Shown here one piece after another: positions 2,474 to 54,619 of a stretch of 64,000 nucleotides of DNA; position 1 is the stretch's first letter; every line of letters begins with the position of its first letter. A program made the position numbers and the translations under genes. Source of the stretch: Oscillospiraceae bacterium (GTDB lineage Bacteria > Bacillota > Clostridia > Oscillospirales > Ruminococcaceae). Where the stretch lies: contig WRKZ01000001.1 in the NCBI GenBank assembly GCA_009777835.1, positions 23,696 to 87,695 of the forward strand, read 5' to 3'. Below the pieces are notes generated by a model. That model had not been told where the DNA came from and did no database searches. It was given only the letters and a program-made list of their open reading frames with translations.

Positions 2474-5400
2474 CTAGATTTCCAGCAACGCGCCGATGAA
2501 AATCGGTGTATTTGTCGTGTTATCAACAATCGCGAAGACGAATGGGCGGTTCAAGTCAACCTGTTTTGGTGTCAGTGACCAATCCCAAGCGTCCACGACC
2601 ACCGTTGTTACTGCCGCCGCTTTCGTGCCGGATTCATCTACTTCGATAAAAGTCTTGTGAAAAACGCCGCCGATATAGATGTTTCCATCCGGGGAGAGTG
2701 CTGTGCCGAGTTTCGAGAAGTCTGCATCGCGTTCATTGAATGCGGTAGACATTCCCATAGCTTTCAGAATATCGTTGAGTTCTATATCATATTCAAACGT
2801 GAATTTCGGCAGGAAGGTAATCAAGCCTTCTGACGGAGTTCTTGCCGACTTGAGTGCCTTGGTGATACCTTCCCCGCTCATGCTCTCGATATAGTCTTCG
2901 ATGCTTATCCCCTCATTCGGAAGGAATGCCGCAAAGGAATAGTGTCCGCCGGCATAATCTTTGGTGAAGCCGGTCGCATTTTCGGTTTGGAAGTATTTCA
3001 TGTCCTTTTGGTCGATTGCCAACATAAAGTCAACGTTTTGTTTGCTTCCGTCGGCTTTGGTGAAGTCACGTTTAATGACATCCTTCTCTTCATACTGTGA
3101 TTCCCAGGTCGAATCAAAAGCGATTGCGTTAATCAGGAACATAATGGTCAGTGGGTCGATTTCTTCCTCAGGGTTGAGGATTTCGTTAATCATGCCTTGG
3201 GTGCTTTGCGAAACCCATTCGTTAATGTCGGTGATTGCTTGGCTATCGAACGCCGACGGTTTAATCAGGGCGTTATAGAAAAGCTCATTCGTTTTAAGGA
3301 AGGCTTCCTTTATCGTGAAAATCTTCGGGGTTTCTCTGTACCAAATCGAGTTGGCGATTTCCAGTTTAGAACCCTCCACACTCGGCAATCCCGCTACATA
3401 TGCCGATAAAGCTTCGTTGAGTTGTGCGAGGCTTAATCCGCGTCCGAGTACGGCTTCCATCTCGGAAAGGGTCGTTCCGTCTGCTCCGTTAGCCGTCATA
3501 GCTAATGCAAGCAGAATCGACAGCGGCGAAACCAGATTGTTTTCGTCTGATTTTTCGGCAAAGCTCTTTTTGAATACATCAACCGTTAAATCTGCGAGTG
3601 CCGGCGCGAATTCGCTGTGCTGTTCGTACAAAAACGGTGCGGGTGCAGGCTCTTCAATCGGTTCTTTTGGTTCGGGTGCAGGGGTCGAAACGACGGTTCC
3701 GTTCAGCCCCAACGCCCCGCTTTGGGTGAAGTCTTTCAGCGACATTGAAACGACCGAATTGTTCGAAACAGCGTACGCATAATCGCCGATATACAGTCCG
3801 CGCTTGAATTCCGTTTGAGAGCCTTGGGTGTTGCTTAAAATTTCACCGAGCAGCGTGAATCCGTTTTCGGAATCATACGAAAGGAACGCAAATCCCGAAA
3901 CCTGCCCGCCCGTGGCGGATTTAATGTATGGGAAGCCGATGATATTCTTCTCCGGTACAACAAGAACCGATTTATGCTCACTTTCAAATGGGCTGCTATA
4001 GTAAGCGTAGGAACCGTTGTTTGTGTTGTTGGTGAGTTGATAAACGTCCAATTCGTTCAGCTCTTCGCCGTCTGCTACGTCAAACATGGTGATTTTAAGC
4101 CCCATGCGGACTCCGTTATCGTCGGTATCAACCCCGAAACCGAGGAGCAATCCCTCTTCGGAATCCCATTGGTGCAGATAGCGTGAGAAACCGGGAATCT
4201 TCAGTTCGCCCAGAAGAACAGGGTTAGTGGGTTCGCTTAAATCGAACGCAAACAACGGGTCGGTCTGCCAGAAAGTCACGATGTAGCCGCGGTCGCCGAT
4301 GAATCGTACCGAGTGAACGCTCTCGCCGAACCCGATTCGGTGAACCTCCGCCAAAATGTTCATACCTTCGTCAAATGTGTACAACGTTCCGCCCTGGAGT
4401 CCGTACATTTCGTCGAAATCAATCGGTACAAACGTCCGCATTGCCCAGTAAGTTCCTTGCAGACTTTCGGGAATGGGCAGAATGGTTGTGTTTTCCGATT
4501 GTTCGGGGCCTTTACCCCAAATTTCGGTCACTACCCGGAGGATGCCTTCGTGTTCGTCTAAATTGAACTGGTTGCGAATGTTCCCCTTGACCCTGCCTTG
4601 GGCGACGTATTCGATTTCGCCCGAGTCAAACGAAAACTTGTCGATGGTGGTGAAGTTTTCGTAGTTGCCGCTCCACCAACCCCATCTCCACCAGAGGTTG
4701 CTTTCGCTTCTTGTGATGTAGATGTTTTCGAGGGACGCATAAATGGTCTGAACCGAGCCGAGGTTCGCCATTACCGATACGGGGAGTTCTTCCCGCTCAA
4801 CGTCAAGCCCGCCGATTACCGTGTAGGAAATGTGGTCGAGTTCTTCCGGGAGGATGATTGATTTCCCGGGAACAATACAGCGTTCCCCGTTTGAGGTGTA
4901 GGAAGGAACGTATTCTTCAAGATTTTTGAATCCCAAACTGTCGGAGGTTGCCAGAATTTTCAGCGAAGGCGTGTAGTTGGAAATGAGGTATACGTTATTT
5001 TCCGACATTCTTGACGAGTGATATTGCCCCTTCTGCGAATAAGACGAGAGCGGCGCAGAGAAATCTCCGGCGGTATCGTACACATCCACGAATACTTCAT
5101 GCTCAAAATAAGAGATGTTGGAGGTGTAGGTCTTCCCGTTGTAGTCGTATTCGGTGGGGATTACGGTAAGGTCATGTCTGCCCCAAATCACGACCAGTTT
5201 GCCCTCATAAAGCAACATTTCATGGAGTTGGACAGCATCTTCGGGGAGGTTGATTTTAGCCTTGAGATTCATATCCCCGTTGTCGGTTTCGATAACGTTC
5301 ACGCCGATACCTTCGGAGGTGAATTTGTGTGCCGTTTCGTTATATCTGAGTGTCCCCGGCGCGACCACGTAGATGTTTTTTCCGTCGGTCTTGACTATGT

Positions 5401-5929
5401 CACCTTCTTGAATCCCTTCAACCTGGTTGTTCGTTCCGGAAAAGTCGAGTTCCGGGGTAGGGTTGCCGTCACTCCATGGGATAGAGTTGGTGGGTACTAC
5501 GAGATTACGAATTTCTCCCAAGTGCGAGTCATCCCAAAGATTCCCGCCCATTTGATGATTCCAGCCTTCAGCTTGAGTGAGTTCGTTAATCATGCGATAC
5601 AGTGTGACGTAATCGACATCGGTGTCCATTTTCGCCAACCACATCAGAATAATCAGTACGTCATCGATGGTGATTTTACCATCGAAGTTTAGGTCGAGGC
5701 GTTGTGACTCTTCCTCCGAAAGTGTGCGCATCTTCGCGAGATGTTTGAGGATTTCCAGTGCGTCGCCTATGGTGTAGGCGGCAGTTCCCGACGAGTTGCC
5801 GGAATTGACGGATTCGGTCGTTTCGGCTTCCGAAATCGAAACCGCCCCGGTTGTAAAGAGCGTGGTGAACAATAAACTCAAGCAGACAAGCAGTGCGGTG
5901 AGTTTCCTTCTTACTTTTTGTTGAAACAT
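2474..5929 (-). CDS. Secreted dockerin / beta-propeller (Beta_propel, COG4880-like) / serpin fusion protein
   Basis: Signal peptide; dockerin-like TIGDALEILKHLAKM and DLNFDGKITIDDVL; FSGTNNQVEGIQEGDIVKTDGKNIY and DPLFAFDLSEP propeller motifs; serpin SPLSI, INEWVSQST, EVDESGTKAAA hinge and NRPFVFAI. Confidence 0.88.
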   Translation of the reverse strand: MFQQKVRRKLTALLVCLSLLFTTLFTTGAVSISEAETTESVNSGNSSGTAAYTIGDALEILKHLAKMRTLSEEESQRLDLNFDGKITIDDVLIILMWLAKMDTDVDYVTLYRMINELTQAEGWNHQMGGNLWDDSHLGEIRNLVVPTNSIPWSDGNPTPELDFSGTNNQVEGIQEGDIVKTDGKNIYVVAPGTLRYNETAHKFTSEGIGVNVIETDNGDMNLKAKINLPEDAVQLHEMLLYEGKLVVIWGRHDLTVIPTEYDYNGKTYTSNISYFEHEVFVDVYDTAGDFSAPLSSYSQKGQYHSSRMSENNVYLISNYTPSLKILATSDSLGFKNLEEYVPSYTSNGERCIVPGKSIILPEELDHISYTVIGGLDVEREELPVSVMANLGSVQTIYASLENIYITRSESNLWWRWGWWSGNYENFTTIDKFSFDSGEIEYVAQGRVKGNIRNQFNLDEHEGILRVVTEIWGKGPEQSENTTILPIPESLQGTYWAMRTFVPIDFDEMYGLQGGTLYTFDEGMNILAEVHRIGFGESVHSVRFIGDRGYIVTFWQTDPLFAFDLSEPTNPVLLGELKIPGFSRYLHQWDSEEGLLLGFGVDTDDNGVRMGLKITMFDVADGEELNELDVYQLTNNTNNGSYAYYSSPFESEHKSVLVVPEKNIIGFPYIKSATGGQVSGFAFLSYDSENGFTLLGEILSNTQGSQTEFKRGLYIGDYAYAVSNNSVVSMSLKDFTQSGALGLNGTVVSTPAPEPKEPIEEPAPAPFLYEQHSEFAPALADLTVDVFKKSFAEKSDENNLVSPLSILLALAMTANGADGTTLSEMEAVLGRGLSLAQLNEALSAYVAGLPSVEGSKLEIANSIWYRETPKIFTIKEAFLKTNELFYNALIKPSAFDSQAITDINEWVSQSTQGMINEILNPEEEIDPLTIMFLINAIAFDSTWESQYEEKDVIKRDFTKADGSKQNVDFMLAIDQKDMKYFQTENATGFTKDYAGGHYSFAAFLPNEGISIEDYIESMSGEGITKALKSARTPSEGLITFLPKFTFEYDIELNDILKAMGMSTAFNERDADFSKLGTALSPDGNIYIGGVFHKTFIEVDESGTKAAAVTTVVVDAWDWSLTPKQVDLNRPFVFAIVDNTTNTPIFIGALLEI

Positions 5930-7315: not shown

Positions 7316-8011
7316 ATGGTTGAATTGAAAAACGTTGAGGTTCATTACGGTGAAACCGGAATCGATGCGTTGAACGATGTGAATATTCGCATTAACGACG
7401 GTGAGTTCGTGTTTATTGTCGGTGATTCCGGTGCGGGGAAGTCCACCATGCTCAAACTGCTTACCAATGAGCTTTCGCCGACAAAAGGCAGGGTTTTCGT
7501 GAACGGGTACAACCTGTCTAAACTGAAGAAGAGCAAACTCCCTAAGTTTCGGCGTTCAATCGGGATGGTGTTCCAGGATTTCCGATTGATTCCCGATATG
7601 ACTGTTTTTGAGAATGTTGCGTTCGTGTTGCGGGCAACCGATAAATCAAAGAAGGTGATTCGTCAGCGGGTTCCGTACGTGCTGAATCTCGTGAAACTCG
7701 CCGACCGGGCAAAATCGTATCCGTCGCAGCTTTCCGGCGGCGAACGCCAGAGGGTGGGAATCGCACGGGCATTCGCCACCGACCCCGGGCTGATTATCGC
7801 GGACGAGCCTACGGGAAACATCGACCCGCGGCTTTCTTACGAAATAGTCGAGCTGTTGTTGGACATTAACAAATGCGGCGCGACGGTCATTATGGTAACG
7901 CATGAGCATGATTTAGTCCAGTATTTCGGCGGGCGAATCATTAATTTGAAAGGCGGTCGGGTCGTATTTGACGATTATATCGGCGGCAGGGGCACGGGAG
8001 AAGAAGTTTGA
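7316..8011 (+). CDS. ftsE: Cell division ATP-binding protein FtsE
   Basis: GDSGAGKST, LSGGERQR, ADEPTGNID; adjacent to ftsX. Confidence 0.93.
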   Translation: MVELKNVEVHYGETGIDALNDVNIRINDGEFVFIVGDSGAGKSTMLKLLTNELSPTKGRVFVNGYNLSKLKKSKLPKFRRSIGMVFQDFRLIPDMTVFENVAFVLRATDKSKKVIRQRVPYVLNLVKLADRAKSYPSQLSGGERQRVGIARAFATDPGLIIADEPTGNIDPRLSYEIVELLLDINKCGATVIMVTHEHDLVQYFGGRIINLKGGRVVFDDYIGGRGTGEEV

Positions 8012-8048
8012 ATGTCATGCCACGTTTGTGGTAGAAAGGCATGGTCAT
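8006..8048 (+). promoter_or_regulatory. Shared leader element, copy 1 (ahead of ftsX)
   Basis: gtttgaatgtcatgccacgtttgtggtagaaaggcatggtcat; 40 of 41 aligned bases match the spoIIIAC copy, plus two 1-nt insertions. Confidence 0.8.
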
Positions 8049-8053
8049 TAAGT

Positions 8054-9005: not shown

Positions 9006-10592
9006 ATGAAAAAAAAGTTTTATATCACAACCCCTATTTACTATCCGTCGGGGGAACCCCATATCGGGCATTGTTACACCACCGTCGCCTGCGACACAAT
9101 CGCACGGTATAAGAAGTGGCAGGGGTACGACGTGTTCTTCTCTACCGGAACCGACGAACACGGCATGAAAATCGAGGAGAGCGCGAAGAAAGCCGGGACT
9201 TCTCCGCAGGAATACGTTGACGAAATCGCCGGACGATTCAAGAAACTGTGGAAGTTTATGAATATCGGCTATGACCGTTTTATTCGTACCACCGATGAAG
9301 CGCATAAGTCTGCCGTGCAGAAAATTTTCACGGCACTGTACGAAAAAGGCTATATCTATAAGGGCGAATATGCGGGTAAGTATTGCGTCCCGGATGAGTC
9401 GTTCTGGACTGCATCACAGCTCAAAGACGGTAAATGCCCGGAATGTGGCAGAGAGGTCATCGATGCAAAAGAAGAAGCGTATTTCATGAAGATGGAACCC
9501 TTCGCCGAAAGAATCGAGAAGTTACTCACCGAGGGTGATTTTCTTCAACCTTCGGCGCGGGTCAATGAAATGCTTAACAATTTCATCAAGCCCGGACTGG
9601 AAGACCTGTGTGTTTCGCGAACCAGTTTCAAATGGGGAATCCCCGTACCGTTTGACCCCGAACACGTGGTCTATGTCTGGATTGACGCACTCTCGAATTA
9701 TATCACGCTCCTGGGCTACGAAAATGATGAGTACAGTGACATGAACTACTGGCAGCCGTCAACTGTCAATTGTCAGTTGTCAACTGTTAATTGTCTTCAT
9801 ATGACGGCGAAGGAAATCGTGCGTTTTCACTCGATTATATGGCCGGCGATTCTGATGGGGTTGGACTTACCGCTCCCGAAACGCCTGTATTCTCATGGGT
9901 GGATTAACTTCGGCGGGAAGAAAATGGGCAAAAGCACCGGAAACATCATCGACCCGTTTATACTCGGCGAACGGTTCGGGGTTGATGCGGTTCGATATCA
10001 GATTCTGCGGGAAATGCCGTTTTCGGGTGATTTTGATTTCTCTAACGAACTCATGCTCAATCGAATCAACACCGATTTAGCCAACGATTTAGGTAATCTG
10101 GTTTCTCGAACCGTCGCAATGGTAATCAAATATTTCGACGGGGCTATTCCTGTTTCATCGCTCAAGTTTGAATCGGGCGAAGACAGTGATTTGATGACTA
10201 AAGCTGCGAATTTACGGAATAAAGTTGATGAGTTAATCGAAACCCCTAAATTGTCGGAGGCGTTGGGTGAAATTTTTGCGGTGATTTCTCGTGCGAACAA
10301 ATATATTGATGAGACTACGCCGTGGGTTCTCGCCAAAGATGAGACGAATAAGCCGCGACTTGCGCAGGTTCTGTATAATCTGCTTGAGACCATTCGGATT
10401 TGTTCGAGTTTGTTGGCGGCGTTCATGCCGACTTCGATGAAACTGGTATGGGAACAAATCGGCGTTTCGGAATCGGAAGGGGATGTGACCTACGAAAAAG
10501 CCGGCGTTTGGAACGATGCGTTCAATTATACCGTTAAGAAAGGTGATATAATCTTCCCGCGGTTCGACATTGCAAAAGAGTTGGAGGGGTGA
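9006..10592 (+). CDS. metG: Methionyl-tRNA synthetase, short form without the C-terminal tRNA-binding domain
   Basis: ITTPIYYPSGEPHIGH, GTDEHG, LCVSR, WGIPVP, YVWIDAL, KMGKS (KMSKS variant); ends right after IFPRFD. Confidence 0.95.
   Translation: MKKKFYITTPIYYPSGEPHIGHCYTTVACDTIARYKKWQGYDVFFSTGTDEHGMKIEESAKKAGTSPQEYVDEIAGRFKKLWKFMNIGYDRFIRTTDEAHKSAVQKIFTALYEKGYIYKGEYAGKYCVPDESFWTASQLKDGKCPECGREVIDAKEEAYFMKMEPFAERIEKLLTEGDFLQPSARVNEMLNNFIKPGLEDLCVSRTSFKWGIPVPFDPEHVVYVWIDALSNYITLLGYENDEYSDMNYWQPSTVNCQLSTVNCLHMTAKEIVRFHSIIWPAILMGLDLPLPKRLYSHGWINFGGKKMGKSTGNIIDPFILGERFGVDAVRYQILREMPFSGDFDFSNELMLNRINTDLANDLGNLVSRTVAMVIKYFDGAIPVSSLKFESGEDSDLMTKAANLRNKVDELIETPKLSEALGEIFAVISRANKYIDETTPWVLAKDETNKPRLAQVLYNLLETIRICSSLLAAFMPTSMKLVWEQIGVSESEGDVTYEKAGVWNDAFNYTVKKGDIIFPRFDIAKELEG
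9759..9795 (+). repeat. Five tandem heptamers inside metG
   Basis: tcaactg tcaattg tcagttg tcaactg ttaattg tc, encoding STVNCQLSTVNC. Confidence 0.85.
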
Positions 10593-19173: not shown

Positions 19174-19213
19174 TAAAAAAAACAAGAGCAGCGTTCAAGC
19201 TGCTCTTGTTTTT
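19174..19213. terminator. Bidirectional terminator between convergent genes
   Basis: aacaagagcagc/gctgctcttgtt stem with A and T tracts on either side. Confidence 0.85.
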
Positions 19214-25304: not shown

Positions 25305-25454
25305 GCTCTTGTTTAGCTTTCAGCCTCGTCAAGCTCACCTGCTCGACGACGAAGTTGCCGACCCGTGAGCTCTTGTTTAGCTTTCAGCTTCGTCAAGCTC
25401 ACCTGCTCGACGACGAAGTCGCCGACCCCGTGAGCTCTTGTTTAGCTTTTAGCT
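25305..25454. repeat. Repeat family A: 2.3 tandem copies of a 64-65-bp palindromic unit
   Basis: Units start at 25305, 25369 and 25434 (gctcttgtttagctttcagc..gtcaagctcacctgctcgacgacgaag..gccgaccc..gtga). Confidence 0.9.
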
Positions 25455-25719
25455 AGTTTTCAACAAAACCGCTTTCTACGAGCTTAATCAAGCCTTCGAC
25501 TGCCAACTGTTCATCGGCACCATCGGCTATAACCCTTATGGAAGAACCCCTCACGATTCCTAATGAGAGAATCCCCAACAAGCTCTTGGCGTTTACCCGC
25601 CGCTCTTCCTTTTCCACCCAGATGGATGACTTATACTCGTTTGCCTTCTGAATAAAGAACGTTGCCGGCCGCGCGTGCAAGCCAACCTGATTCTTAACGT
25701 CTACCTCTTTTACGAACAT
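25453..25719 (-). CDS. ptsH: Phosphocarrier protein HPr
   Basis: GLHARPA (His15) and VNAKSLLGILSLG (Ser46). Confidence 0.95.
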   Translation of the reverse strand: MFVKEVDVKNQVGLHARPATFFIQKANEYKSSIWVEKEERRVNAKSLLGILSLGIVRGSSIRVIADGADEQLAVEGLIKLVESGFVEN

Positions 25720-28739: not shown

Positions 28740-28827
28740 GTAAGGGTGTAATACCCCGCCCCTTGGGGCGGCACTCTCGCCCGCAGGGCGAGGTGTGCAG
28801 GGCTTGCCCTGCGGTGTTACCTTACAT
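28740..28827. repeat. Repeat family B (MITE/REP-like, about 87 bp), copy 1
   Basis: Highly similar to 50773-50858; internal hairpins ctcgcccgcagggcgag and cagggcttgccctg; gtaagg/ccttac ends. Confidence 0.85.
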
Positions 28828-30412: not shown

Positions 30413-32514
30413 TTAAAAAGTGGAATGTAAAAAATTTCAAGGCTGAAATAACCAGTCCGGTGGTTGCAGGGCTGAGTCCGCTTGCGAAGGACGTTCTTGC
30501 CGCACGCTCCGTTACCGATGTGGAGTCGGCACACAACTTTTTTAATGCGGAACTGTTTCACTCGCCTTTTCTTTTGAAAGACATGGATAAAGCCGTTGAA
30601 ATCGTAAAAGAAGTGTTGGAGAACGGCGGACGAATCACCGTATACGGTGACTATGACTGTGACGGAATTACCGCTACGGTTATGCTTTACAGTTATCTCA
30701 CCGCGCTCGGCGGGGAGGTTGACTGGTACATACCTTCCCGGGGGGAAGGATACGGACTTAACGCTGCGGCAATCGAGAAAATCGCTGTGGGCGGTACAGA
30801 GTTGATTATAACCGTGGATAACGGGATTTCAGCCTTCGCGGAGGCTGAGTTAATCAAGCAAAAAGGCATCAAGCTAATCATAACTGACCATCATACCCCT
30901 TATAAAAACGGTGAATGTCTTCCGCAAGCCGATGCGATAATAAATCCGAAACAGAGGGATTGCAGTTACCCTTTCAAGGAATTAGCCGGGTGCGGCGTAG
31001 CACTCAAACTGATTTGCGCAATGGAAAACTCCGACGGGGCAGACGTAATCGAACAATACGGCGATTTAGCCGCAATCGGCACAATTGCCGATATAGTCCC
31101 CATTACAGATGAAAACCGCCAGATTGTCGCATTGGGGCTTCAACATCTCGAATACTCCGAAAATATCGGGTTGCATTGTCTTATGAAGAAGGCAGGTCTG
31201 GGAGAATCCCATATAGATTCGACTGCGTTGGCATTTATCCTCTGTCCGCGGATTAATGCGGCGGGGCGGCTTGCACATCCGGGAAAAGCGGTCGAACTCC
31301 TGCTTTGCGAGAATCATGAAATCGCCTCGGCAAAAGCCGAAGAGCTCAACGCACTTAATCGGCAACGGGTGGAAGAAGAGCGTGAAATTATTTCGCAAAT
31401 TGAGAAACTTTTGAGCGAAAACCCCCGACTTCTAAAGCAAAGGGTGTTGGTTTTATCGGGAAAAGACTGGAATCCCGGAATAATCGGGATTATCGCCTCC
31501 CGCATGGTGACACGATACGGCAAACCCTGCGTGGTAATCACTCATGAGGTGGCTTCGACGACAGCAAAAGCAGAACAAGAGCAACGGGCGGCGGCTTCGC
31601 CGTCGGCAGGTTGCTTGACGACAGCAAAAGCGAGTTGTCGCTCGGTCGGCGGATTCTCGGTTTATGAGATGTTGGCGTTCTGCGGTGATTTGTTGGTCAA
31701 TTTCGGCGGACACGCGGGTGCGGGGGGATTTTCGCTTGAAAGCGAGAAAATCGAGGCATTGACCGAACGGATTCACGAATACGCGAGAACCCGCTTCACC
31801 GTCATGCCGGAACTTGAAGTCGGGGCTGATTCAATCCCGAACGCACATGATATAAACGTCGAAAACGTTGAAAAACTAGAGATGGTTCAGCCGTTTGGCG
31901 AAGGTAATACCGTACCGATTTTCTACCTGCCGAATTGTTTAATCAAGAGCAAACGTCCGCTGAAAGAAGGCAAGTACATTTCGTTTACCGCCGAGTATCA
32001 AGGCAGAGATTTCAAGGTGCTGGACTTTTCGCGGAGTTATGCCGATTTTTGGTATAAAATCGGAGATATGGTTGACTTGATGCTCAATTTTTCGATTAAC
32101 GAATACAATGATTCTAAAGACGTGAGCATGAAGATTGTTGATATACGACTTTCGGGATTGTCGCAGGACAGATTTTTCTTGGCGAAGGCGACTTATGAAC
32201 AGGTCGTGCGGGATGAGGAAATCGACGGCAATCTGTATTCGCGGATTGTTCCGGGCGATTCCGACATGAAACGTGCCTACGACATAATCAGAAACAGCGG
32301 TTGTCTTGATGAAATCGTTCAAAGGGGCGTGAAGTCGGGAATAAACTACTGTATGCTCCGTGTGATTATCGATGTGTTTGAGGAAATGGGGCTGCTCACG
32401 TTGAATCCTGTGACAGGGGGGATTGAAATGAACAAATCAGGGACAAAAGCGGACTTAAACAAGTCTGAGGTGCTTATAAATTTAAAGCTGAAAGCGGAAA
32501 GGAGTTCTGGCTAA
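30409..32514 (+). CDS. recJ: Single-stranded DNA exonuclease RecJ, with a 20-aa repeat-derived insertion
   Basis: YGDYDCDG, ITVDNG, TDHH, GTIAD, PRINAAGR, GGHAGAGG, PFGEGN. Confidence 0.95.
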   Translation: MIKKWNVKNFKAEITSPVVAGLSPLAKDVLAARSVTDVESAHNFFNAELFHSPFLLKDMDKAVEIVKEVLENGGRITVYGDYDCDGITATVMLYSYLTALGGEVDWYIPSRGEGYGLNAAAIEKIAVGGTELIITVDNGISAFAEAELIKQKGIKLIITDHHTPYKNGECLPQADAIINPKQRDCSYPFKELAGCGVALKLICAMENSDGADVIEQYGDLAAIGTIADIVPITDENRQIVALGLQHLEYSENIGLHCLMKKAGLGESHIDSTALAFILCPRINAAGRLAHPGKAVELLLCENHEIASAKAEELNALNRQRVEEEREIISQIEKLLSENPRLLKQRVLVLSGKDWNPGIIGIIASRMVTRYGKPCVVITHEVASTTAKAEQEQRAAASPSAGCLTTAKASCRSVGGFSVYEMLAFCGDLLVNFGGHAGAGGFSLESEKIEALTERIHEYARTRFTVMPELEVGADSIPNAHDINVENVEKLEMVQPFGEGNTVPIFYLPNCLIKSKRPLKEGKYISFTAEYQGRDFKVLDFSRSYADFWYKIGDMVDLMLNFSINEYNDSKDVSMKIVDIRLSGLSQDRFFLAKATYEQVVRDEEIDGNLYSRIVPGDSDMKRAYDIIRNSGCLDEIVQRGVKSGINYCMLRVIIDVFEEMGLLTLNPVTGGIEMNKSGTKADLNKSEVLINLKLKAERSSG
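31557..31631. repeat. Repeat family A copy, in frame inside recJ
   Basis: 60-bp unit bounded by gacgacagcaaaagc (31557-71, 31617-31); aligns by eye at roughly 80% to the reverse complement of 25369-25433. Confidence 0.85.
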
Positions 32515-43837: not shown

Positions 43838-44764
43838 TCAAATTATTTCAATTTCGAAAAAGTCGGCGATTGTTTTCACCGTGGGTTTTAAGTCATCGTT
43901 GCAGCGGGAATACCATTCGTTGATGTATTCTTCAAAGGTGAGTTCTTCGCAGTCCCCCATTGCGTAGAGGATTTTCAGCGCGTCCCACGAGTGGGGATTG
44001 TCCTTGAACGCGCTTTCGTATATCGGGGCGGCAAGCGTGTTTATGAAGCGGTTTACGTTATCGTTGCCGCCGACTTCCCCGGCATCGAAATCCCATTCAA
44101 CCATAGGGGATTCTTCCAGGGTTTGCCTGTGCTGTTTGAACAGTTCCGCCAGTTCATGCTCATAAATCCCGATTGAATAATAGTGTGCGCGCGCCCTGTA
44201 TTCATTACGCATGATTTTGCCGTAGTAAGCCCAGTTTGGACGAGGAGCGTCATTCTTCCATTTTTCCGAAAGCACGTCCAACGCATAAAAAGCATGAACT
44301 TCGCATATAAGTTCGTCAAACCAGAAATGTCTTCCTGATATGTAGAATCCTCCTGTTGCGTAATGTGCAAGCTCATGCGAGAGCTGTCTTACGTAAATTG
44401 ACCAGTGAGTCCCCGATGACGAGATGAAAAGCATTTCAAGGTTGGTGTAGATGAATGCACCGTTATTATCGCTCGCTTTAATAAACAGTTGCTGTTCTTC
44501 GTTGTTATGGCGGAGCATGTATTCTTTCGAATAAGCATCGTATAAAACCCCGGCGACTTCCTCGGCTATCAGCAAGACTTCATCGTCTCGCACGTTGCCC
44601 CAGACCCCGCGCTGTAAGTACCAGTGTGTTCCTTCCAGTTGAAGATGGTCGGGTACTCCCGGCGGCGGAGTTATGTCACTGCCGAACGCGCCAATCGCAT
44701 TGAAATAAAGCATTACGCCAAGCGTAATCACCGTGGATATGACGAGTACCAGTATTTTTCGCAT
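43838..44764 (-). CDS. Exported gluzincin-type zinc metallopeptidase
   Basis: N-terminal signal or anchor; HELAH followed by a WFDE third-ligand motif. Confidence 0.7.
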   Translation of the reverse strand: MRKILVLVISTVITLGVMLYFNAIGAFGSDITPPPGVPDHLQLEGTHWYLQRGVWGNVRDDEVLLIAEEVAGVLYDAYSKEYMLRHNNEEQQLFIKASDNNGAFIYTNLEMLFISSSGTHWSIYVRQLSHELAHYATGGFYISGRHFWFDELICEVHAFYALDVLSEKWKNDAPRPNWAYYGKIMRNEYRARAHYYSIGIYEHELAELFKQHRQTLEESPMVEWDFDAGEVGGNDNVNRFINTLAAPIYESAFKDNPHSWDALKILYAMGDCEELTFEEYINEWYSRCNDDLKPTVKTIADFFEIEII

Positions 44765-44783: not shown

Positions 44784-45015
44784 AGAATGGGGGATTCTCC
44801 CCCAAACCCCCTGTCGCTTCGCAGGGAAACCCTGCTTCGCTCCCTAAAGAATGGGGCTTCGCCCCAAACCCCCTCACCTGCGGAGGCAGAGCCGCCTTGG
44901 TTCCCTAAAGAATGGGGGATTCTCCCCCAAACCCCCTGTCGCTTCGCAGGGAAACCCTGCTTCGCTCCCTAAAGAATGGGGGCTTCGCCCCAAACCCCCT
45001 GTCGCTTCGCTCCCT
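44784..45015. repeat. Repeat family C: BIME-like mosaic of four palindromic units
   Basis: Units of 64, 61, 64 and about 43 bp at 44784, 44848, 44909 and 44973, each agaatgggg-hairpin-cccaaaccccct; units 1 and 3 identical. Confidence 0.92.
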
Positions 45016-45674: not shown

Positions 45675-48600
45675 ATGAGAAAAAGAAGATTGCTTGCAAT
45701 CCTCGTGACTGTGTCGATGGTGTTATCACTGTTTACCATGTTTACGAGTGCAAGCGACGCTGTTCGTGACACTGTAACCCGTGAATGGGGCTATGTGAAC
45801 GAATATGAATACGAAATCGATGTCAAAGTTGATTTCGGCGGCAACGTTGCTTTTGCTGTTGGCGATAAGGTAAACCTTAGTGCCGTTGATGCTGATAGTT
45901 TCGTTGCTGAAAAAGCTGACTCCTCTCCTAAAGCATTTACGGTCAGCGGCGCAAAAATTAGCGGAAACAACCGCACACAGGAAATTGCTACCGATTCTTT
46001 CGGTTGGGAAGTTTTCACTGTTGTCGGTACTGCTAATGACAGAATTACCGCGGGAAGCCGTTCTTCTCTTACTTTCACCTTAGTTGGTAAGTTCGAGGCC
46101 GACCTTTACAACGGTACTTACGAAGTGGATGACATCCAGATTGTTGATGATTTCTTTGCTCAACTCGTTCTCGGTGAATCCCCTGAAGAAGAAGAAATCG
46201 ATTTCGTGTACGCTGAAGACGATGACGGCATTGATGAAATCATTTTCGTTACCGATGTACGTGCAACCGCTACCAAAGTTGCTCTTGAAGACGTTGTTGA
46301 CAATGGGTCGGATTTCATCGGTAACTCTGACCTCGGTCTGTACGGCGATTACGGTGATGGAATCTTCACCCTTAAAATGAAAGGGATTGAATGGGACGAA
46401 GCACCTTTCATTTTCGGTGCTGACGCTGTAGTTCTTGACCTTGATTTCGTTGGACGTAACTTAGGAAATTCCGGGAATAGTGACCCTAACTACGACTTAC
46501 TCGTATGGACTGACATTTTCGAACTTGCTAATGCTGATGATAACGGCGACTTCGATATTGAAGAGTTCATTGATGAAGTTGTGAGAGTACGTATTCCTAA
46601 ACCTGCAAATGCAAACGCAAACCTCGGAACACTTAGTGCAGAACTCCCTGTTGATTATCTTTACTGCGAAAGCGATGATGACGGCTACGAACAAGTAGAA
46701 GAAATCTACTTTGCTGTTGTAAATCGTGTAGCTAAAAAAGATGATACTTGGGCAACCGTGGTTATCGAAGACGTTCTCGGTGAAGATACCCCGGACTCTG
46801 CAGAAAACCAACTGTTCGGTGCTACCCTCACTATCGAAGGTGAGTACCTGCTCATCGGCGTTCCTGAAGGCGAAGGCGAAGTTACCCGCTCTTACGGATA
46901 CGTAAATGAGTACGAATACGAAATTGATGTAAAAATCGATTTCGGTGGAGAAGTATTTTTCGCTGTCTCTGACGCGGTTGAACTCGACGGCGGATTTAAT
47001 GCCGCAGTTGCTGAAGAACTTGCTACTCTGGAAGCTACAATGGCTGTCGAAACCGCTGCTTATGATGCCGCTTCGGCATCTGAAGAAACCGTTACTAGCG
47101 TTATGACTTCGGCTTCTACGGATGAGTCTTCCGCTAGAACCGCTGCGACATCCGCTTCTAACGCTGCTGCCGATGCTAGCGCATCTCTCGTTTCGGAATC
47201 GGTTGCTGGTAATAATACTTCTGCTTTTTCTAGTGCTTACGCTAGTGCACTCGTTGATGTCGCATCGGCAGAAGCTGCTGTAGCCTCTGCTTCCAGTGCG
47301 TACTCAAGTGCTTCGGTGGCTAGTGACTCTCTGGACGTTGCTATGACCAGTGCTTCTACCGCATACGATAATGCTTCTTCCAGTGCAAGCTCCATCGAAG
47401 ACGAAGCTGACCGTGTTTTCGTAGTTGCTGCTGACGAAGACGAAAACGAATTCGAACTGACTGTAAGTGCTGTTAGAATCAGCGGAAACAGCCGTATGCA
47501 ACCTGCTGACAACACTGACCAGCTTGGTAGTGCTGACGCAAGAGAAAAAGGATTTGAATGGGATGTTGCCAGTGCTGTGGGTACACGTAATGACAGACTC
47601 ACCGCAGGAAACCGTTCTTATCTGACTTTCACTTTAATCGGTAATTTTGATTTAGACCTCTACAATGACGGATTTGACGTAGATAGCATCAAAATCGCTG
47701 AAGGATTCTTGGCTACCATTATATTTGATGAGGATTCATCGGAAACCCCATTCAAGTATAACAAAAATGTAAATGGTATTGATGACATCATCTCTGTATC
47801 GGCTGTTCGCAAGACCGGCGAAAAAGTTGCCCTTGATGACGTTGTTCTTTCTAAGGCTTCGAACACGAACAATGCAGGCGCATTCGACCTTACCGACGGT
47901 GTTACGACCCTTGAATTAGGTAGAATTCTGTTCAATGAAGCACCGTTCATCTTCGGTGCGGAATCCATTGTCCTTGACCTTGAATTCACAGAAAGAAACC
48001 TGAAGAACTTCAATACGGGCGATGATAACTATGACTTGCTCGTTTGGACTGATTTGTTTGAAGACGAAAACACAGAAGAAGGCGACACTTTTGACGTAAT
48101 GGATTTCCTTGGTGATGTTGTTAGATTCCGTATTCCGAGACCTTCTAACGCTAACACTAACCTCGGCGTTCTCAGCGTTGAACTTCCTGCTGAATTCTTC
48201 TCGAACGCAGACTTTAAACGCGCAAGCAAAATTTACTTCGCTGTAATTAACCGGGTTGTTGGGGAAAATGACACATTCGTTGATGTTGTTATCGAAGATG
48301 TTGTAGACGGAACCGACAACGCTCTCTGGGGCGCATCTCTCACCATTGAAGGTGAAGCTATTCGTCCTACAGTTCCTGTCAAAGAAAACTACGTTATCGA
48401 TGACATTTCCGAAAAAATCGGCGAAGACGGCAAAGTTGATTTAGCTGAATTAATCGCTGAAATCGGGGCAAACTACGACAAGGTTATACTTTCTGAAGAA
48501 GGCTTACTCGCTCTCGAAGAAGATTTGACCGTAGTTGTAGCAGAAGGAATCGAATACACGATTCTGGTAGACTCCATCGATGAAGACGCGATTGCTGAAG

Positions 48601-49493
48601 GATTCGTATTGAATTTCTCGGTAGTCAGCGAAAACTACGCAATCGAAGGATACTCCTTCGCAGAAGGCTCACTCGTGATTCTTCCCGGCGAAGTTGGCGA
48701 ATTCGGACTTGACATTGAACTGTTCGTATCGGCAGAACTCCTCGGCGAACTTGACGCAGCAGACATCAATCTGTACTATGTTTCCGGCGCGACTGTTTCT
48801 CTCATCAAAGACGGCGTTGAAGTCGTAGTTGAAGCTTGTGAAGAAGCAGAAGAAGACGAAGAGCATGATTGCGAAGAAGAAGAATGTGAACTCGCTGTTC
48901 TCGGCGTAAAAGTCGTACTCAGCAAAGCAAGCTTCTACGTACTCGCTGACGCTGCTCCTCAAGTAGAAGGTGACGTAACTGATACTACCACTTCTGACAC
49001 CGAAACCGAACCGACCGAAACCGAACCGACCGAAACCGAAACTTCGGCAACTGAAACCGAAACTTCGGGAACCGACACTTCCGTAAGCACTACTTCGGGA
49101 ACCGACACTTCCGTAAGCACTACTTCGGGAACTTCCGGAAGCAATGACGTTAACACTTCGGACACTTCGGACACTTCGGACACTTCCGGAACTGCTACTT
49201 CTGTAAGCGAATCCGATACTGAAGCTACTTCGGAAACTTCTGAAATTATTGAAGAAGGCTACAAAGTAGGTGACGTTAACGGTGACGAACAGATTACGAT
49301 TGCTGACGCACTCGAAATTCTGAAGTACTTGGCGAAAATGACGAGTACCCTCGACACAGAAGAAGGTCTTGAAGCGGGAAGAATCCTCGGCGCAACCGTA
49401 CCGGGAATCGGCGATGTTCTTGAAATCCTCAAATACCTCGCGAAAATGAACAACGCACTCGTTGATAATCACGATTGGGCACCCAGGGCGTAA
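45675..49493 (+). CDS. Large acidic secreted dockerin protein, candidate S-layer/major surface protein
   Basis: Signal peptide; duplicated ~370-aa unit; Ala/Ser insert; beta-rich domain ending ASFYVL; T/S/E linker; C-terminal GDVNGDEQITIADALEILKYLAKM dockerin. Confidence 0.8.
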   Translation: MRKRRLLAILVTVSMVLSLFTMFTSASDAVRDTVTREWGYVNEYEYEIDVKVDFGGNVAFAVGDKVNLSAVDADSFVAEKADSSPKAFTVSGAKISGNNRTQEIATDSFGWEVFTVVGTANDRITAGSRSSLTFTLVGKFEADLYNGTYEVDDIQIVDDFFAQLVLGESPEEEEIDFVYAEDDDGIDEIIFVTDVRATATKVALEDVVDNGSDFIGNSDLGLYGDYGDGIFTLKMKGIEWDEAPFIFGADAVVLDLDFVGRNLGNSGNSDPNYDLLVWTDIFELANADDNGDFDIEEFIDEVVRVRIPKPANANANLGTLSAELPVDYLYCESDDDGYEQVEEIYFAVVNRVAKKDDTWATVVIEDVLGEDTPDSAENQLFGATLTIEGEYLLIGVPEGEGEVTRSYGYVNEYEYEIDVKIDFGGEVFFAVSDAVELDGGFNAAVAEELATLEATMAVETAAYDAASASEETVTSVMTSASTDESSARTAATSASNAAADASASLVSESVAGNNTSAFSSAYASALVDVASAEAAVASASSAYSSASVASDSLDVAMTSASTAYDNASSSASSIEDEADRVFVVAADEDENEFELTVSAVRISGNSRMQPADNTDQLGSADAREKGFEWDVASAVGTRNDRLTAGNRSYLTFTLIGNFDLDLYNDGFDVDSIKIAEGFLATIIFDEDSSETPFKYNKNVNGIDDIISVSAVRKTGEKVALDDVVLSKASNTNNAGAFDLTDGVTTLELGRILFNEAPFIFGAESIVLDLEFTERNLKNFNTGDDNYDLLVWTDLFEDENTEEGDTFDVMDFLGDVVRFRIPRPSNANTNLGVLSVELPAEFFSNADFKRASKIYFAVINRVVGENDTFVDVVIEDVVDGTDNALWGASLTIEGEAIRPTVPVKENYVIDDISEKIGEDGKVDLAELIAEIGANYDKVILSEEGLLALEEDLTVVVAEGIEYTILVDSIDEDAIAEGFVLNFSVVSENYAIEGYSFAEGSLVILPGEVGEFGLDIELFVSAELLGELDAADINLYYVSGATVSLIKDGVEVVVEACEEAEEDEEHDCEEEECELAVLGVKVVLSKASFYVLADAAPQVEGDVTDTTTSDTETEPTETEPTETETSATETETSGTDTSVSTTSGTDTSVSTTSGTSGSNDVNTSDTSDTSDTSGTATSVSESDTEATSETSEIIEEGYKVGDVNGDEQITIADALEILKYLAKMTSTLDTEEGLEAGRILGATVPGIGDVLEILKYLAKMNNALVDNHDWAPRA
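49000..49200 (+). repeat. Nested short tandem repeats encoding the Thr/Ser/Glu linker
   Basis: 30-bp unit at 49062 and 49092; gaaaccgaaccgacc x2; acttcggac repeats. Confidence 0.85.
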
Positions 49494-49609
49494 CAGAAAC
49501 TAATTAGTCCCACACTCTCCGCGGGAGAGAGTAAAAAAATAAAAACAGATTTCGGGCGGGAAAACCGCTAATGACACCCGCCCGAAACAAAATTTGGAGG
49601 TAATTCAAA

Positions 49610-50326
49610 ATGAAAAAAATGGTAAAACTCATGTCAATAATCGTAGCTATCGCTATGATTGCTTCTCTCGCAGTTAGCGCATCCGCTTCTGCAGGCACTC
49701 CGAACACTGCCGGAGAAAAAGGAATCGTATTCGGTTTCGTAAACAATGACCCGACTAAGTTGGCACTTATCGTTCCGGACGGCGGAACTACCGGTATTGC
49801 CGGTTGGGGATTCGTTGACATCAAAATCGTTCCTCCTGCAGGCGGAACCATCAATGCACGTCCGTCAGCTGCTGACGAAGACCTTGACATCACTAACACC
49901 CCCGGTTCCAGCGTAGTTGAAGGCACCTACGGCGGCGGCGTTGTATTCCCTGAATTTTTTGCAGGCGGATTCGTTGTTGCAACTTGGAACGTAACCGGAA
50001 CCGGCGACTTCGTAATCACCGGTGACTACACTTATGACCCTGAAGGCGCTGATAATGAAGATTTCACATTGAACCTTACCGTAAGCAACGTATTCGGAAG
50101 CACCGAAACTACCGTTGCAACTCAAGAAACCGCTGCACCTACCGAAACAACTGAAGGCGGAACTGAAGAAGGAACTCAAGCAACTGCAGCTCCTACCGCA
50201 GCTCCTACCGCTGCTGCTACCACCACTTCGGGAACCACTCCTAAAGGCGGCGTAGCTCTCGCAATCATTCCTACTTTGGCAGCTGCCGGCGCAGCAGTCT
50301 TCGCAGCTTCCAGAAAAAGGAAGTAA
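49610..50326 (+). CDS. Sortase-signal surface protein with a ~135-aa beta domain (candidate cohesin/anchoring scaffoldin)
   Basis: Signal peptide, beta-strand domain, T/A/E linker, TPKGG-hydrophobic-RKRK tail; the cohesin call is a loose pattern match only. Confidence 0.65.
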   Translation: MKKMVKLMSIIVAIAMIASLAVSASASAGTPNTAGEKGIVFGFVNNDPTKLALIVPDGGTTGIAGWGFVDIKIVPPAGGTINARPSAADEDLDITNTPGSSVVEGTYGGGVVFPEFFAGGFVVATWNVTGTGDFVITGDYTYDPEGADNEDFTLNLTVSNVFGSTETTVATQETAAPTETTEGGTEEGTQATAAPTAAPTAAATTTSGTTPKGGVALAIIPTLAAAGAAVFAASRKRK

Positions 50327-50442
50327 GACTAACCTAATGTCAAGGCTTTGACATTGCAAACAGGTAATATGCGGGCGGTAGATTAGCTCTGCTGCCCGCT
50401 TTTACAACTAAAATTAGAGGGAAAATCTGGAGGAATACTAAC

Positions 50443-50718
50443 ATGAAATTGAGAAAAGTTTCTTCACTCGTGATTGCTATCGCTATGGCGGCTACTATGG
50501 CTGCAGCAGCAAGTGCGAGCGAAAACGAAACCGAAACCACTGCTGAAGAAACCACCGCTGCAACTGCTGCTACGACTGCAGCAACTACTGCCGGTGGAAC
50601 TGTTGCAGGTGGGGACAAAGACGGCGACCTCAAAACAGGTGTCGGCGGCGTGGCTATCCTCGGTGGAGTCGCTGTTATGGCGGCAGGTGCCGTTATAGTC
50701 GCGAAAAAGAGAAAGTAA
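50443..50718 (+). CDS. Minimal sortase-signal protein (Thr/Ala/Glu-rich mature peptide of about 40 aa)
   Basis: SD ggagg; signal peptide; DLKTG-hydrophobic-KKRK tail. Confidence 0.82.
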   Translation: MKLRKVSSLVIAIAMAATMAAAASASENETETTAEETTAATAATTAATTAGGTVAGGDKDGDLKTGVGGVAILGGVAVMAAGAVIVAKKRK

Positions 50719-50733
50719 TCGCATCACGCGATG

Positions 50734-50768
50734 AACGACGCCGGGATTTTTCCGGCGTCGTTTTATTG
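50734..50768 (+). terminator. Intrinsic terminator closing the surface-protein operon
   Basis: aacgacgccgg/ccggcgtcgtt stem followed by ttatt. Confidence 0.8.
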
Positions 50769-50772
50769 AAGA

Positions 50773-50858
50773 TAAGGGTGTAATACCCGCCCATTGGGGC
50801 AGTTCTCTCGCCCGTAGGGCGAGGGGTGCAGGGCTTGCCCTGCGGTGTTAGCTTACAT
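50773..50858. repeat. Repeat family B, copy 2
   Basis: Highly similar to 28741-28827. Confidence 0.85.
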
Positions 50859-51090
50859 TTGGCGAAATTTGTATGAATCTGCCGACACGATTTTGGGAAA
50901 AGTATATTGAAGCAATCCTTATTCCTATATTTAGAAGCGTTGAGAATTTTCGTGAAAAATAACCAAAAATTCACCTAAAATTTTGGTTATTTTGCCTATT
51001 GAAAATTTCTTAAATTTATATTATAGTATAAGGGTAAGCATTTGCGGCTGTTCGGCTGCAAAAACAAAAAAATTTGGAGGAAATAATCGC

Positions 51091-51759
51091 ATGAAATTAA
51101 GGAAAATTCTATCGTTAGTCGTGGCAATCGTCATGATTAGCACTCTCGCAATTTCCGCAGGCGCGGTTTGGACAGTTCCGATTGAATCGGCACCGAGTGG
51201 ATACGACGTACAGTTCCATGTAGCGGGCTCTTCGGTAAGACCCAGAACCGATGCAATCAACTACGAACTTATCAGGGGCGTAAGATGGACGTTCGAACTC
51301 ACCGAAACCGATTACGGTGTAGACGAAAATGGTGTTCCCGGGGATTTCGTTGTGGTTAGTGCCGGTTGGAACTGCGGACCTACTGGCTGGCAACAACAAG
51401 ATTTCAATTACCCGGCACAAAAAAGCTACACGGTTGACCTTAGTCAACACGCTTGGGTTCCCGCACCTGAAGGTCAAGAAGGCGGCACGGGAATCGACTG
51501 GTTGGAGGTTTCTGCAGCAGTATTCTCCGACCTTACGTGTAAAGGAACGGTTAAAATCGAAATCCTCGGGCCGAACAACGTTGTTCTTTCCAGAGGACAG
51601 CAGGAACTCGCAACTACGAGTACCGGCACTACTGCTACCGGCAACACCAACAATTCCGAACTTAAAACCGGCGTTGACGGCGTGGCGATTCTTGGCGGCG
51701 TAGCGATTCTCGCGGCAGGTGCAGTAATTGTTACCGGCAAAAGAAGAAAATCTCGCTAA
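51091..51759 (+). CDS. Sortase-signal surface protein with a Trp-containing beta-sandwich (CBM-like) domain
   Basis: SD ggagg; signal peptide; WNCGPTGWQQQDF; ELKTG-hydrophobic-KRRK tail. Confidence 0.8.
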   Translation: MKLRKILSLVVAIVMISTLAISAGAVWTVPIESAPSGYDVQFHVAGSSVRPRTDAINYELIRGVRWTFELTETDYGVDENGVPGDFVVVSAGWNCGPTGWQQQDFNYPAQKSYTVDLSQHAWVPAPEGQEGGTGIDWLEVSAAVFSDLTCKGTVKIEILGPNNVVLSRGQQELATTSTGTTATGNTNNSELKTGVDGVAILGGVAILAAGAVIVTGKRRKSR

Positions 51760-52845: not shown

Positions 52846-52878
52846 AAAACAAGAGCCGCAATCAGCGGCTCTTGTTTT
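52846..52878. terminator. Bidirectional terminator
   Basis: aaaacaagagccgc/gcggctcttgtttt. Confidence 0.85.
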
Positions 52879-54532: not shown

Positions 54533-54594
54533 TGTTATGACCATGCCTTTCCGCCACAAAGTGGCATGAATTCAAACCTGTCAAGCTCACCTGC
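54530..54594 (-). repeat. Shared leader element plus family A fragment ahead of spoIIIAF
   Basis: 64/65 identical to 56451-56515, including the start codon. Confidence 0.92.
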
Positions 54595-54619
54595 CGGCGG
54601 CTTGACGAAGCAAGCCCTG

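Follow-up and report, generated by a model that had tools for sequence, protein, structure and literature searches.

A small interspersed hairpin repeat, probably inserted secondarily, in transcribed DNA of uncultured termite-gut Oscillospiraceae

The 64-kb stretch of DNA analysed here (positions 23,696 to 87,695 of contig WRKZ01000001.1, assembly GCA_009777835.1; numbered from its first letter and hereafter called the window) belongs to an uncultured Oscillospiraceae bacterium of the termite gut. Proteins of the window are encountered again on termite-gut contigs from JGI and ENA, the public sequencing runs that contain its sequence are termite-gut metatranscriptomes only, and the nearest homologues of its SpoIIIAE and HPr proteins carry labels of Oscillospiraceae metagenome-assembled genomes (MAGs). 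The subject of this report is a short repeat, family A, which occurs in the window as five hairpins at four loci. The first locus is a tandem array at the end of ptsH, the neighbours of which (rimM, trmD, ptsH and the genes for an NAD-epimerase and an SDR protein) all lie on the minus strand. The next two lie in the spoIIIAA-AH operon, likewise on the minus strand, and the fourth resides within recJ. Transcripts of ptsH and spoIIIA correspond to the minus strand, and family A was accordingly read in this direction at these loci. For comparison we used contigs named L001 to L122, among which L016, L086, L111 and L121 are termite-gut metagenome contigs that carry family A themselves.

The array starts at the TAG of ptsH, directly after the stop, and the 2.3 tandem units that a preliminary description of this DNA had placed at this position were borne out by Tandem Repeats Finder (TRF) and by the list of open reading frames (ORFs) (Table 1). 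Its two hairpins (25394-25438 and 25330-25373) have minus-strand folding energies of -27.4 and -20.3 kcal/mol and score 89 and 78 bits with the covariance model described below, while the spacer between the units reads GAAGCTGAAAGCTAAACAAGA on the minus strand. An independent 1-kb JGI contig, L001, was 100% identical to the window through the whole array.

Family A elements measure ~45-60 nt and consist of a GC-rich, two-tier hairpin core preceded on the transcribed strand by an A-rich head (..AAACAAGA). The lower stem is AAGAGCUCAC/GUGAGCUU (GAGCUCAC/GUGAGCUU in the array), and its inner pairs covary between TCAC/GTGA, AGC/GCT and AAC/GTT. A small internal loop, GGG(G)/GCAG, separates it from an upper stem of 7-8 bp, the sequence of which is free provided that pairing holds, and which is topped by a triloop. 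In the array, the upper stem is UCGGCGAC/GUCGUCGA with a UUC loop, and UUGAC follows 3' of the hairpin. Elsewhere we found the upper stems TCGGCGRC/GYCGTYGA, TCGAAGC/GCTTCGA (L016), GAGCGAA/TTCGCTC (L111a and L111b), GGGCAGGC/GCCTGTCC (L111c) and TCGGTGGC/GCCGCCGA (L121). For the array, the folding energy is -59.6 kcal/mol on the transcribed strand (z = -4.2) versus -45.6 kcal/mol on the other, a difference that stems from several G-U pairs.

A covariance model derived from five copies recovered all known copies at 75-89 bits and, in addition, found L121 3245-3310, 3187-3244 and 2028-2090 as well as the recJ copy. In the resulting alignment, 97.3% of the pair cells are standard pairs, as compared to 29-46% in slid controls. 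Four pairs show compensatory changes, and none of 500 shuffles reached the observed covariation score. Single-sequence folds gave the same architecture, with at least four unrelated upper stems all of which pair. When the window was searched against Rfam, only its two tRNAs reached the gathering score, and the array and the spoIIIAB-spoIIIAC copy gave nothing credible at E<=1. We also considered several specific structures and signals in family A. An H-type pseudoknot would require implausible loop lengths, and its second stem is not kept in the spoIIIAB-spoIIIAC copy. A promoter in the tail of the unit (TTGACA) was rejected since no copy has an acceptable -10 element at 16-18 nt, and neither inspection nor scans revealed a spacing that fits a sigma-G, sigma-F or sigma-E promoter. 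An integron attC site was discarded because the flanking 8-mers are direct rather than inverted and do not fit RYYYAAC/GTTRRRY.

The family A copies at two junctions of the spoIIIA operon had been noted before, and the earlier coordinates proved correct. Copy C3, in the spoIIIAB-spoIIIAC gap, is identical to the array unit at 40 of the 44 positions of its core (56501-56544) and is bracketed by ATTCAAAC at 56491-56498 and 56549-56556, an exact 8-nt flanking repeat with an empirical p of ~0.02. This copy is identical in L109 and L110. The ENA k141 contig L110 ends, at its position 1, exactly in the loop of this hairpin, as is expected of a repeat in a de Bruijn assembly. Copy C4, in the spoIIIAE-spoIIIAF gap, is rearranged: it has retained the 3' arm and the TTGACAG tail, and the replacement of its 5' half created the GTCAAGC/GCTTGAC hairpin that had been described at 54580-54606, where the sequence reads GTCAAGCTCACCTGCCGGCGGCTTGAC. 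At the ftsE/ftsX junction, a single ATTCAAAC-type 8-mer (8006-8013), again as described, is followed by the same leader as at spoIIIAC, with no hairpin in between; this leader is a paralogous 'empty' form.

The copy within recJ had been overlooked. The covariance-model match spans 31569-31631 on the plus strand, and the 45-nt element itself is flanked by a perfect 15/15 repeat. Counting one copy of the duplication, 60 nt have been added in frame within the DHHA1 domain, and in an alignment with solved RecJ structures the protein has ~20-26 additional residues immediately ahead of the conserved AKxSxRS stretch. As part of this stretch is encoded by the right-hand repeat, it is native sequence that was duplicated. 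The insertion of family A duplicated target sequence at some sites, namely 15 nt in recJ and 8 nt at the spoIIIAC leader.

Table 1. Coordinates of family A, family B and associated features in the window
Feature	Position	Strand	Basis or remarks
Family A tandem array	25305..25454	-	TRF: period 64, 2.3 copies, 95% matches, score 272
ptsH (HPr)	25453..25719	-	ORF list; PF00381 on L001; homologue sequences
Family A copy C3, spoIIIAB-spoIIIAC gap	56499..56548	-	Covariance model, 86.8 bits
Rearranged family A copy C4, spoIIIAE-spoIIIAF gap	54578..54619	-	Covariance model, 23 bits
Family A copy within recJ ORF	31572..31616	+	Covariance model, 45.7 bits, E ~1e-11; fold
Left 15-nt direct repeat GACGACAGCAAAAGC at recJ copy	31557..31571	+	Sequence, empirical p = 0.001
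Right 15-nt direct repeat GACGACAGCAAAAGC at recJ copy	31617..31631	+	Continues into conserved RecJ codons
Family B leader before spoIIIAC	56454..56498	-	GTTTGAAT, hairpin UGCCAC/GUGGCA, GAAAGG, 13 nt to ATG
Family B leader before spoIIIAF	54533..54577	-	Sequence
Family B leader before ftsX, without family A hairpin, single GTTTGAAT	8006..8053	+	Sequence
Bidirectional terminator, convergent genes	19181..19210	.	Stem AACAAGAGCAGC/GCTGCTCTTGTT; AAGAGC(AGC) in common with family A head
Bidirectional terminator after spoIIIAH	52848..52876	.	16 nt (AAACAAGAGCCGCAAT) in common with distal array end

The leader that accompanies these copies is not part of family A: it is a second repeat family, B, which had been overlooked as such. 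Family B consists of GTTTGAAT, a small hairpin, a GAAAGG motif and 13-14 nt to the ATG, with the conserved spacer CATGGTCATAAnn. Outside the window, it precedes ligA (L016 ~1549-1600) and both spoIIIAA and spoIIIAC (L111 ~190-230 and ~1705-1746), with compensatory hairpin variants in L111 (GAGG/CCUC), and it is absent from the compact empty junctions of the relatives examined below. The module carries its own ribosome-binding site, and the old site of the target gene is still found upstream of the insert (GGGGG in the window, GAGGTG in L016). A and B are joined by the AU-rich linker GGUUUGAAUU. Including the A tail, the spoIIIAF and spoIIIAC leaders are 98% identical over 65 nt, which suggests that the A+B composite was copied or converted recently. 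A and B with their hairpins, GAAAGG site and fixed spacer to the ATG would form a composite intercistronic cassette that has itself been copied. As a working hypothesis, the 3' hairpin of A, the AU-rich linker and the 5' hairpin and ribosome-binding site of B would together act as a processing and translation cassette. A translated N-terminal extension encoded by A+B, which is open and in frame in L016 and L111, was rejected because a TGA closes both copies in the window.

The idea that family A might amount to only these few copies fails, since further copies were found on metagenome and RNA contigs. In L016, the hairpin and leader stand directly before ligA. In L086, the start of a lipoprotein ORF coincides with the pstB stop, and a copy lies in the N-terminal part of this ORF; here 57 nt, or 19 codons (EGLAGRRLRRRAGELDRLE), separate the MKKLK n-region from the hydrophobic core of the signal peptide. 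L111 has three copies, with hairpin and leader upstream of spoIIIAA and at the AB/AC junction and the hairpin alone at AE/AF; these copies have diverged, yet their upper stems still pair. In L121, a 2.5-unit array (period 58) directly follows an HD-GYP gene, and a single copy directly follows a glycosyltransferase (GT8) gene. When the contigs of three termite-gut RNA runs were compared with the window copies at >=80% likeness, two runs yielded 14 and 2 contigs with the hairpin and unlike flanks, at least three of which contain head-to-tail units with other A-rich spacers, and one more contig matched the recJ-type variant, again in tandem. Copies at non-homologous loci, such as C3 and L086, are ~91% identical. 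The earlier characterization as a dispersed, multi-copy, non-autonomous repeat that also enters leaders and proteins thus holds, with the in-frame recJ copy and the L086 signal peptide as the protein inserts.

The gapped pattern GCTCAYGG-N18-26-CAGGTGAGCTTGAC, which matches the window three times, gave six matches among the GTDB species representatives, a set that does not include the source genome; these were chance matches in unrelated GC-rich genomes, one of which was checked. A 17-mer scan of metagenome contigs gave 93 chance matches among the 95 listed, the real ones being L016 and L086, and a pattern scan of viral contigs returned chance matches only. Concatenated repeat translations were compared with a protein collection in search of spurious ORFs over other copies, and none was found at E<=10. 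Family A is truly dispersed and probably confined to one clade of uncultured termite-gut Oscillospiraceae. The density of four loci in the 64-kb window, two in 8.8 kb of L121 and three in 10.8 kb of L111 would extrapolate to more than 100 copies per genome.

Filled and empty sites in related genomes, of which the preliminary description had seen a hint at ftsX, exist both at the ptsH 3' end and at the spoIIIA junctions. L121 is syntenic with the window (HD-GYP, rimM, trmD, ptsH, epimerase, SDR) at ~70% nucleotide identity. The ptsH site is empty in L121 and in L122, and conversely the window has no copy at the sites after the HD-GYP and GT8 genes that are occupied in L121. That syntenic stretches carry copies at different sites is, as judged from these alignments, the strongest evidence for mobility. 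The gap between ptsH and the epimerase gene measures 70 nt in L121 versus 232 nt in the window, and in L121 it consists of a TAA, a terminator with A-tract, stem and T-tract (AAACAAAGGCATACC..GGTATGCCTTGTTTT; its 5' arm begins AAACAAAGGC) and a ribosome-binding site. HPr of the window has 88 residues and ends in FVEN, whereas its relatives have 87 and end in FVE, so the array junction remodelled the stop codon and the C-terminus of ptsH (25453-25458). The end of the HD-GYP protein likewise differs, reading VLLDGK in L121 and MLS in the window.

To compare the spoIIIA junctions, we used SpoIIIAE homologues to retrieve the orthologous operons of nine related organisms with 63-76% protein identity. 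The spoIIIAB-AC gap is only 13-19 nt in L112, L116 and L117, where it holds a stop, a GGGGAG-type ribosome-binding site and the ATG, and it measures 168 nt in L113, with neither family A nor B; L115 ends short of this junction. spoIIIAE and spoIIIAF overlap or abut in L112, L113, L115 and L117 and are ~27 nt apart in L116 after correction of the AF start. The corresponding distances in the window are 113 nt at AB/AC and 87 nt at AE/AF. In a neighbour-joining tree of SpoIIIAE, which is star-like, the window and L111 stand beside empty relatives. Comparison of filled and empty sites thus shows that copies were inserted secondarily into transcribed DNA.

The same operon accommodates other inserts in other lineages. 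L118 (1-135 and 1840-1945) and L119 (315-430, 1000-1110 and 2130-2245) have different hairpin inserts at the same spoIIIA junctions, consisting of hairpins that contain GTCGGGGTCGCCGT in L118, and of a three-hairpin insert, a long AACAGATTGGTAGCAAAGTGTTAGC palindrome and (GACAATT)x4 in L119. Because related lineages thus carry different hairpin inserts at the same junctions, the intercistronic gaps are suggested to be recurrent landing sites. A ~400-nt insert lies between spoIIIAD and spoIIIAE of L115 (560-1120); the direct repeat ATAAATATGTAAAAA stands on either side of it, and the insert takes the form of a very long hairpin when folded, contains a promoter-like TTGACA-17-TATAAT site and may represent a larger MITE (miniature inverted-repeat transposable element).

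Family A occupies gene 3' ends, gaps between cistrons, 5' leaders and in-frame positions inside ORFs, always between or inside co-directional genes. All 10-11 loci point in the same direction as the genes around them (four loci in the window, one each in L016 and L086, three in L111 and two in L121), an agreement to be expected by chance in roughly one case in a thousand. In the mRNA sense, an average of 5.4 A occurs in the 10 nt that precede the hairpin, and 1.7 T in the 10 nt that follow, so that there is no U-tract in the mRNA direction. On the reverse strand, the hairpin is followed by a moderately U-rich tract (5.4/10). The bias could thus have arisen because reverse copies inside operons, each a hairpin with a U-rich tract, would terminate transcription and be selected against. 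In the tolerated orientation, the hairpin might act on the mRNA by blocking 3' exonucleases, by providing a processing site or by uncoupling cistrons, and selection would keep it folded as RNA.

Taken together, we consider family A to be, probably though not with certainty, a small non-autonomous interspersed hairpin repeat that is lineage-specific, was inserted secondarily and folds as RNA. Recombination between flanking duplicates would account for head-to-tail arrays such as the 2.3 units after ptsH, where the array may have replaced an ancestral intrinsic terminator. Several points weigh against this reading. No mobilising enzyme came to light: a Pfam scan of ~40 ORFs of the window detected no transposase, just as had been stated before. 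Direct repeats of the sort taken earlier for target-site duplications do exist at recJ (15 nt), at the spoIIIAC leader (8 nt), in L016 (7/8) and in the arrays (12-19 nt). They are absent at five of ten loci (L086, L121b and L111a-c), and do not stand as a general property of the family, being neither constant in length (8-19 nt where present) nor universal. Native HD-GYP sequence does not account for the left partial unit of the L121 array, and a reading of the arrays as 'n + 0.3' tandem repeats serves equally well. The pair counts derive from an alignment that was fitted to the covariance model, and a role of the hairpin at the RNA level is something that we purely infer. The RNA runs consist of low-depth contigs that carry no strand information and may contain DNA, the copy number is known from the window and single contigs only, and the star-like tree cannot separate one gain with several losses from repeated gains in spoIIIA.

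The preliminary description had further suggested that the element seeds terminators, which is not supported: at ptsH the array takes the place of the terminator found in relatives, and the sense strand of the element has no U-tract. A link in the opposite direction, in which family A descends from, or recombines with, host terminators with AAACAAGAGCnGC...GCnGCTCTTGTTT stems such as those at 19181 and 52846, is possible, but we regard it as rather unlikely; as a statement on origin, it is compatible with secondary insertion of a non-autonomous repeat. The arms AACAAGAGC/GCTCTTGTT do form the stems of both terminators, as had been pointed out, although the shared 9-mer is at chance level: an empirical k-mer test showed that most 150-nt windows hold a 9-mer with at least five other occurrences (the shuffle-based expectation of 0.58 underestimates the real k-mer bias), and the 9-mer is absent from the terminators of related loci. 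What does stand out is the 16-nt identity AAACAAGAGCCGCAAT between the array's final partial unit and the 52846 terminator, which is reached by 1.1% of control windows (p ~0.01). Moreover, the array sits at the position of the L121 ptsH terminator, and every copy read on the reverse strand is a hairpin with a U-rich tract. The lower stem of L121 (AAGAGCAGC/GCTGCT) equals the stem of the 19181 terminator, but the lower stem varies between copies, so that one such coincidence is unsurprising, and a simple terminator scan calls family A hairpins on neither strand. A historical link between family A and the terminators of this lineage is possible.

The strict strand bias would also be expected if family A were an element of the repetitive extragenic palindromic (REP) type, moved as single-stranded DNA by a Y1 transposase (REP-associated tyrosine transposase, RAYT, or IS200/IS605-type) that recognizes the lower stem plus TTGAC. 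The insertion site of IS200/IS605 elements lies 3' of a motif of four or five nucleotides (such as TTAC or TTGAT), and these elements show a replication-strand bias. Strand-specific insertion with no regular target duplication would suit the half of the loci that lack flanking duplications, the imperfect GC-rich palindrome has a conserved base and a free top, and every copy has the invariant motif TTGA(C/T) directly 3' of its hairpin. We nevertheless consider this mechanism unlikely. The GT(A/G)G head is missing, clustered copies are arranged head-to-tail rather than alternating, the 15-nt target duplication in recJ would be unexpected, the G-U pairs favour the transcribed strand as RNA, and there is no Y1 transposase in the 64 kb searched.

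The model favoured in the preliminary description, a classical MITE that arose as a deletion derivative of an insertion sequence (IS), with terminal inverted repeats, a DDE transposase acting in trans and a fixed 8-bp duplication, appeared distinctly improbable. It draws on the exact 8-nt ATTCAAAC repeat around the 50-nt copy C3 as opposed to the single 8-mer at ftsX, on the same arrangement at 7/8 in L016, and on the existence of filled and empty sites. Yet C3 and L016 may stem from one A-into-B event that was later copied as a composite, and GTTKGAAT (GTTGGAAT) also stands 3' of the L086 hairpin, with neither leader nor left copy, so that it may belong to the element. Since the duplications are neither constant nor universal, ranging from none to 15 nt in recJ and 12-19 nt in the arrays, they are at odds with a MITE of the DDE type. 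Inverted repeats are confined to the hairpin arms, and the window contains no related IS or transposase.

A more speculative scheme, to which we give very little credence, dispenses with a conventional transposase and has family A copied via a single-stranded or RNA intermediate, through template switching or target-primed synthesis, with A+B as a portable cassette. Such copying would lead to variable or absent duplications, co-orientation, 'n + 0.3 unit' tandems, and a conserved stem base with a changing top. Finally, it is highly improbable that family A is a non-mobile, cis-acting regulatory or processing RNA motif (a hairpin bound by a protein or an RNase) that is inherited vertically with occasional local duplication: the uniform sense orientation, the covariation and G-U pairs, the retention of A+B at spoIIIAB/AC in the window and L111 with structure-preserving divergence, and the 20-mer GCTAAACAAGAGCTCACGGG common to the window array and L111c across ~27% protein divergence agree with it, but orthologous sites are empty in most relatives, occupancy is reciprocal between the window and L121, copies beside unrelated genes are ~91% identical, and those within ORFs (recJ, with its target duplication, and L086) have no expected regulatory role.

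With secondary insertion of a small non-autonomous repeat as the preferred reading, family A can be compared with known systems. Intercistronic RNase III hairpins of phage T7 consist of a lower stem, an internal loop and an upper stem, and their cleavage leaves a protective 3' hairpin. Family A shares with them this layout and the intercistronic position, with no relation in sequence. Work on REP sequences in malEFG of Escherichia coli reportedly revealed an effect on mRNA 3' ends and stability. Like REPs and bacterial interspersed mosaic elements (BIMEs), family A is a short imperfect GC-rich palindrome (hairpin of 35-43 nt, GC 0.46-0.74) with many copies in transcribed intergenic DNA and in clusters. 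REPs, however, have a conserved 5' GT(A/G)G head, and BIME clusters alternate in orientation (PMC2817692), whereas the 5' flank of family A reads AAGRGC, which is A-rich, on the sense strand and GTCAAGC on the opposite strand, and all its clusters (the window array, the L121 array and the RNA contigs) are head-to-tail. Furthermore, family A has some target duplications, copies within ORFs and a Firmicute host, and no RAYT was seen among ~40 ORFs of the window.

SPRITEs are terminator-like hairpins of Firmicutes that lie near the 3' ends of coding sequences, have no identifiable partner IS and no clear target duplication, and are limited to one or two close species; they are AT-rich, with an 18-bp duplex and a long U-tract, and are enriched between convergent genes (PMC3049150). 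Family A resembles them as a small interspersed hairpin repeat of Firmicutes near the 3' ends of coding sequences, but it is GC-rich (0.6-0.7 versus 0.47 for the window), has a two-tier stem with a hypervariable top, and stands between co-directional genes in the non-terminating orientation and in tandem arrays. Correia (CREE) and ERIC elements are co-transcribed hairpins that serve as substrates of RNase III or RNase E and alter the expression of flanking genes, and their filled and empty sites differ between strains (PMC10969869). These elements measure 100-200 bp, with inverted ends of at least 26 bp and, for Correia, a fixed TA duplication, as opposed to 45-60 nt and variable or absent duplications in family A. 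Rickettsia palindromic elements (RPEs) are in-frame inserts in unrelated protein genes that are tolerated as peptide segments (PMC10969869). The in-frame inserts of family A, 20 codons in recJ and 19 in L086, resemble these elements without implying membership, as RPEs are ~100-150 bp long, occur in alpha-proteobacteria and are mostly intragenic, while family A is mainly intergenic. Family A works like a small interspersed repeat of the REP, SPRITE or Correia type and lacks defining features of REPs, MITEs and SPRITEs alike.

The window contains further repeats and unusual ORFs. A third repeat family of 73 nt is found at 28755-28827 and 50786-50858, two intergenic copies that are 90% identical. 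It folds into a closing stem with three GC-rich hairpins, reminiscent of a four-way junction (-52.5 kcal/mol, z = -5.3), has no Rfam match at the gathering score, and its head AAGGGTGTAATA also occurs in L116 near position 190. At 44784-45010, 3.6 copies of a 63-nt tandem repeat with GGGGGATTCTCCCCC and CCCTGTCGCTTCGCAGGG hairpins lie directly upstream of a minus-strand ORF (43838-44764) that has no Pfam match. A (GTCAATT)x5.4 tract at 9758-9795 lies within the methionyl-tRNA synthetase ORF, and the same heptamer makes up the spoIIIAE-AF spacer of L119. The 1151-residue minus-strand ORF at 2474-5929 fuses a beta-propeller (PF09826) to a complete serpin domain (PF00079). Five consecutive plus-strand ORFs at 45675-52834, one of 1272 amino acids, have no Pfam match; they contain duplicated modules (45774/46881 and 46398/47937) and Thr/Glu/Pro-rich linker repeats (48999-49245 and 52329-52464), and their products may be cell-surface proteins.

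Whereas Proteobacteria and a few pathogens have yielded good descriptions of small interspersed hairpin repeats, there are hardly any from the uncultured Clostridia that dominate gut communities. On a practical level, such repeats break metagenome assemblies, as in L110, and cause mis-called gene starts. If the variable duplications reflect unconventional copying, family A would offer a tractable entry point to its mechanism, and a portable A+B cassette, if real, would change the way in which translation is coupled within operons like spoIIIA. In the lineage studied here, family A appears to have replaced a terminator, opened translationally coupled junctions of a sporulation operon, lengthened RecJ and a signal peptide by additional segments, and joined up with a module that supplies a ribosome-binding site.

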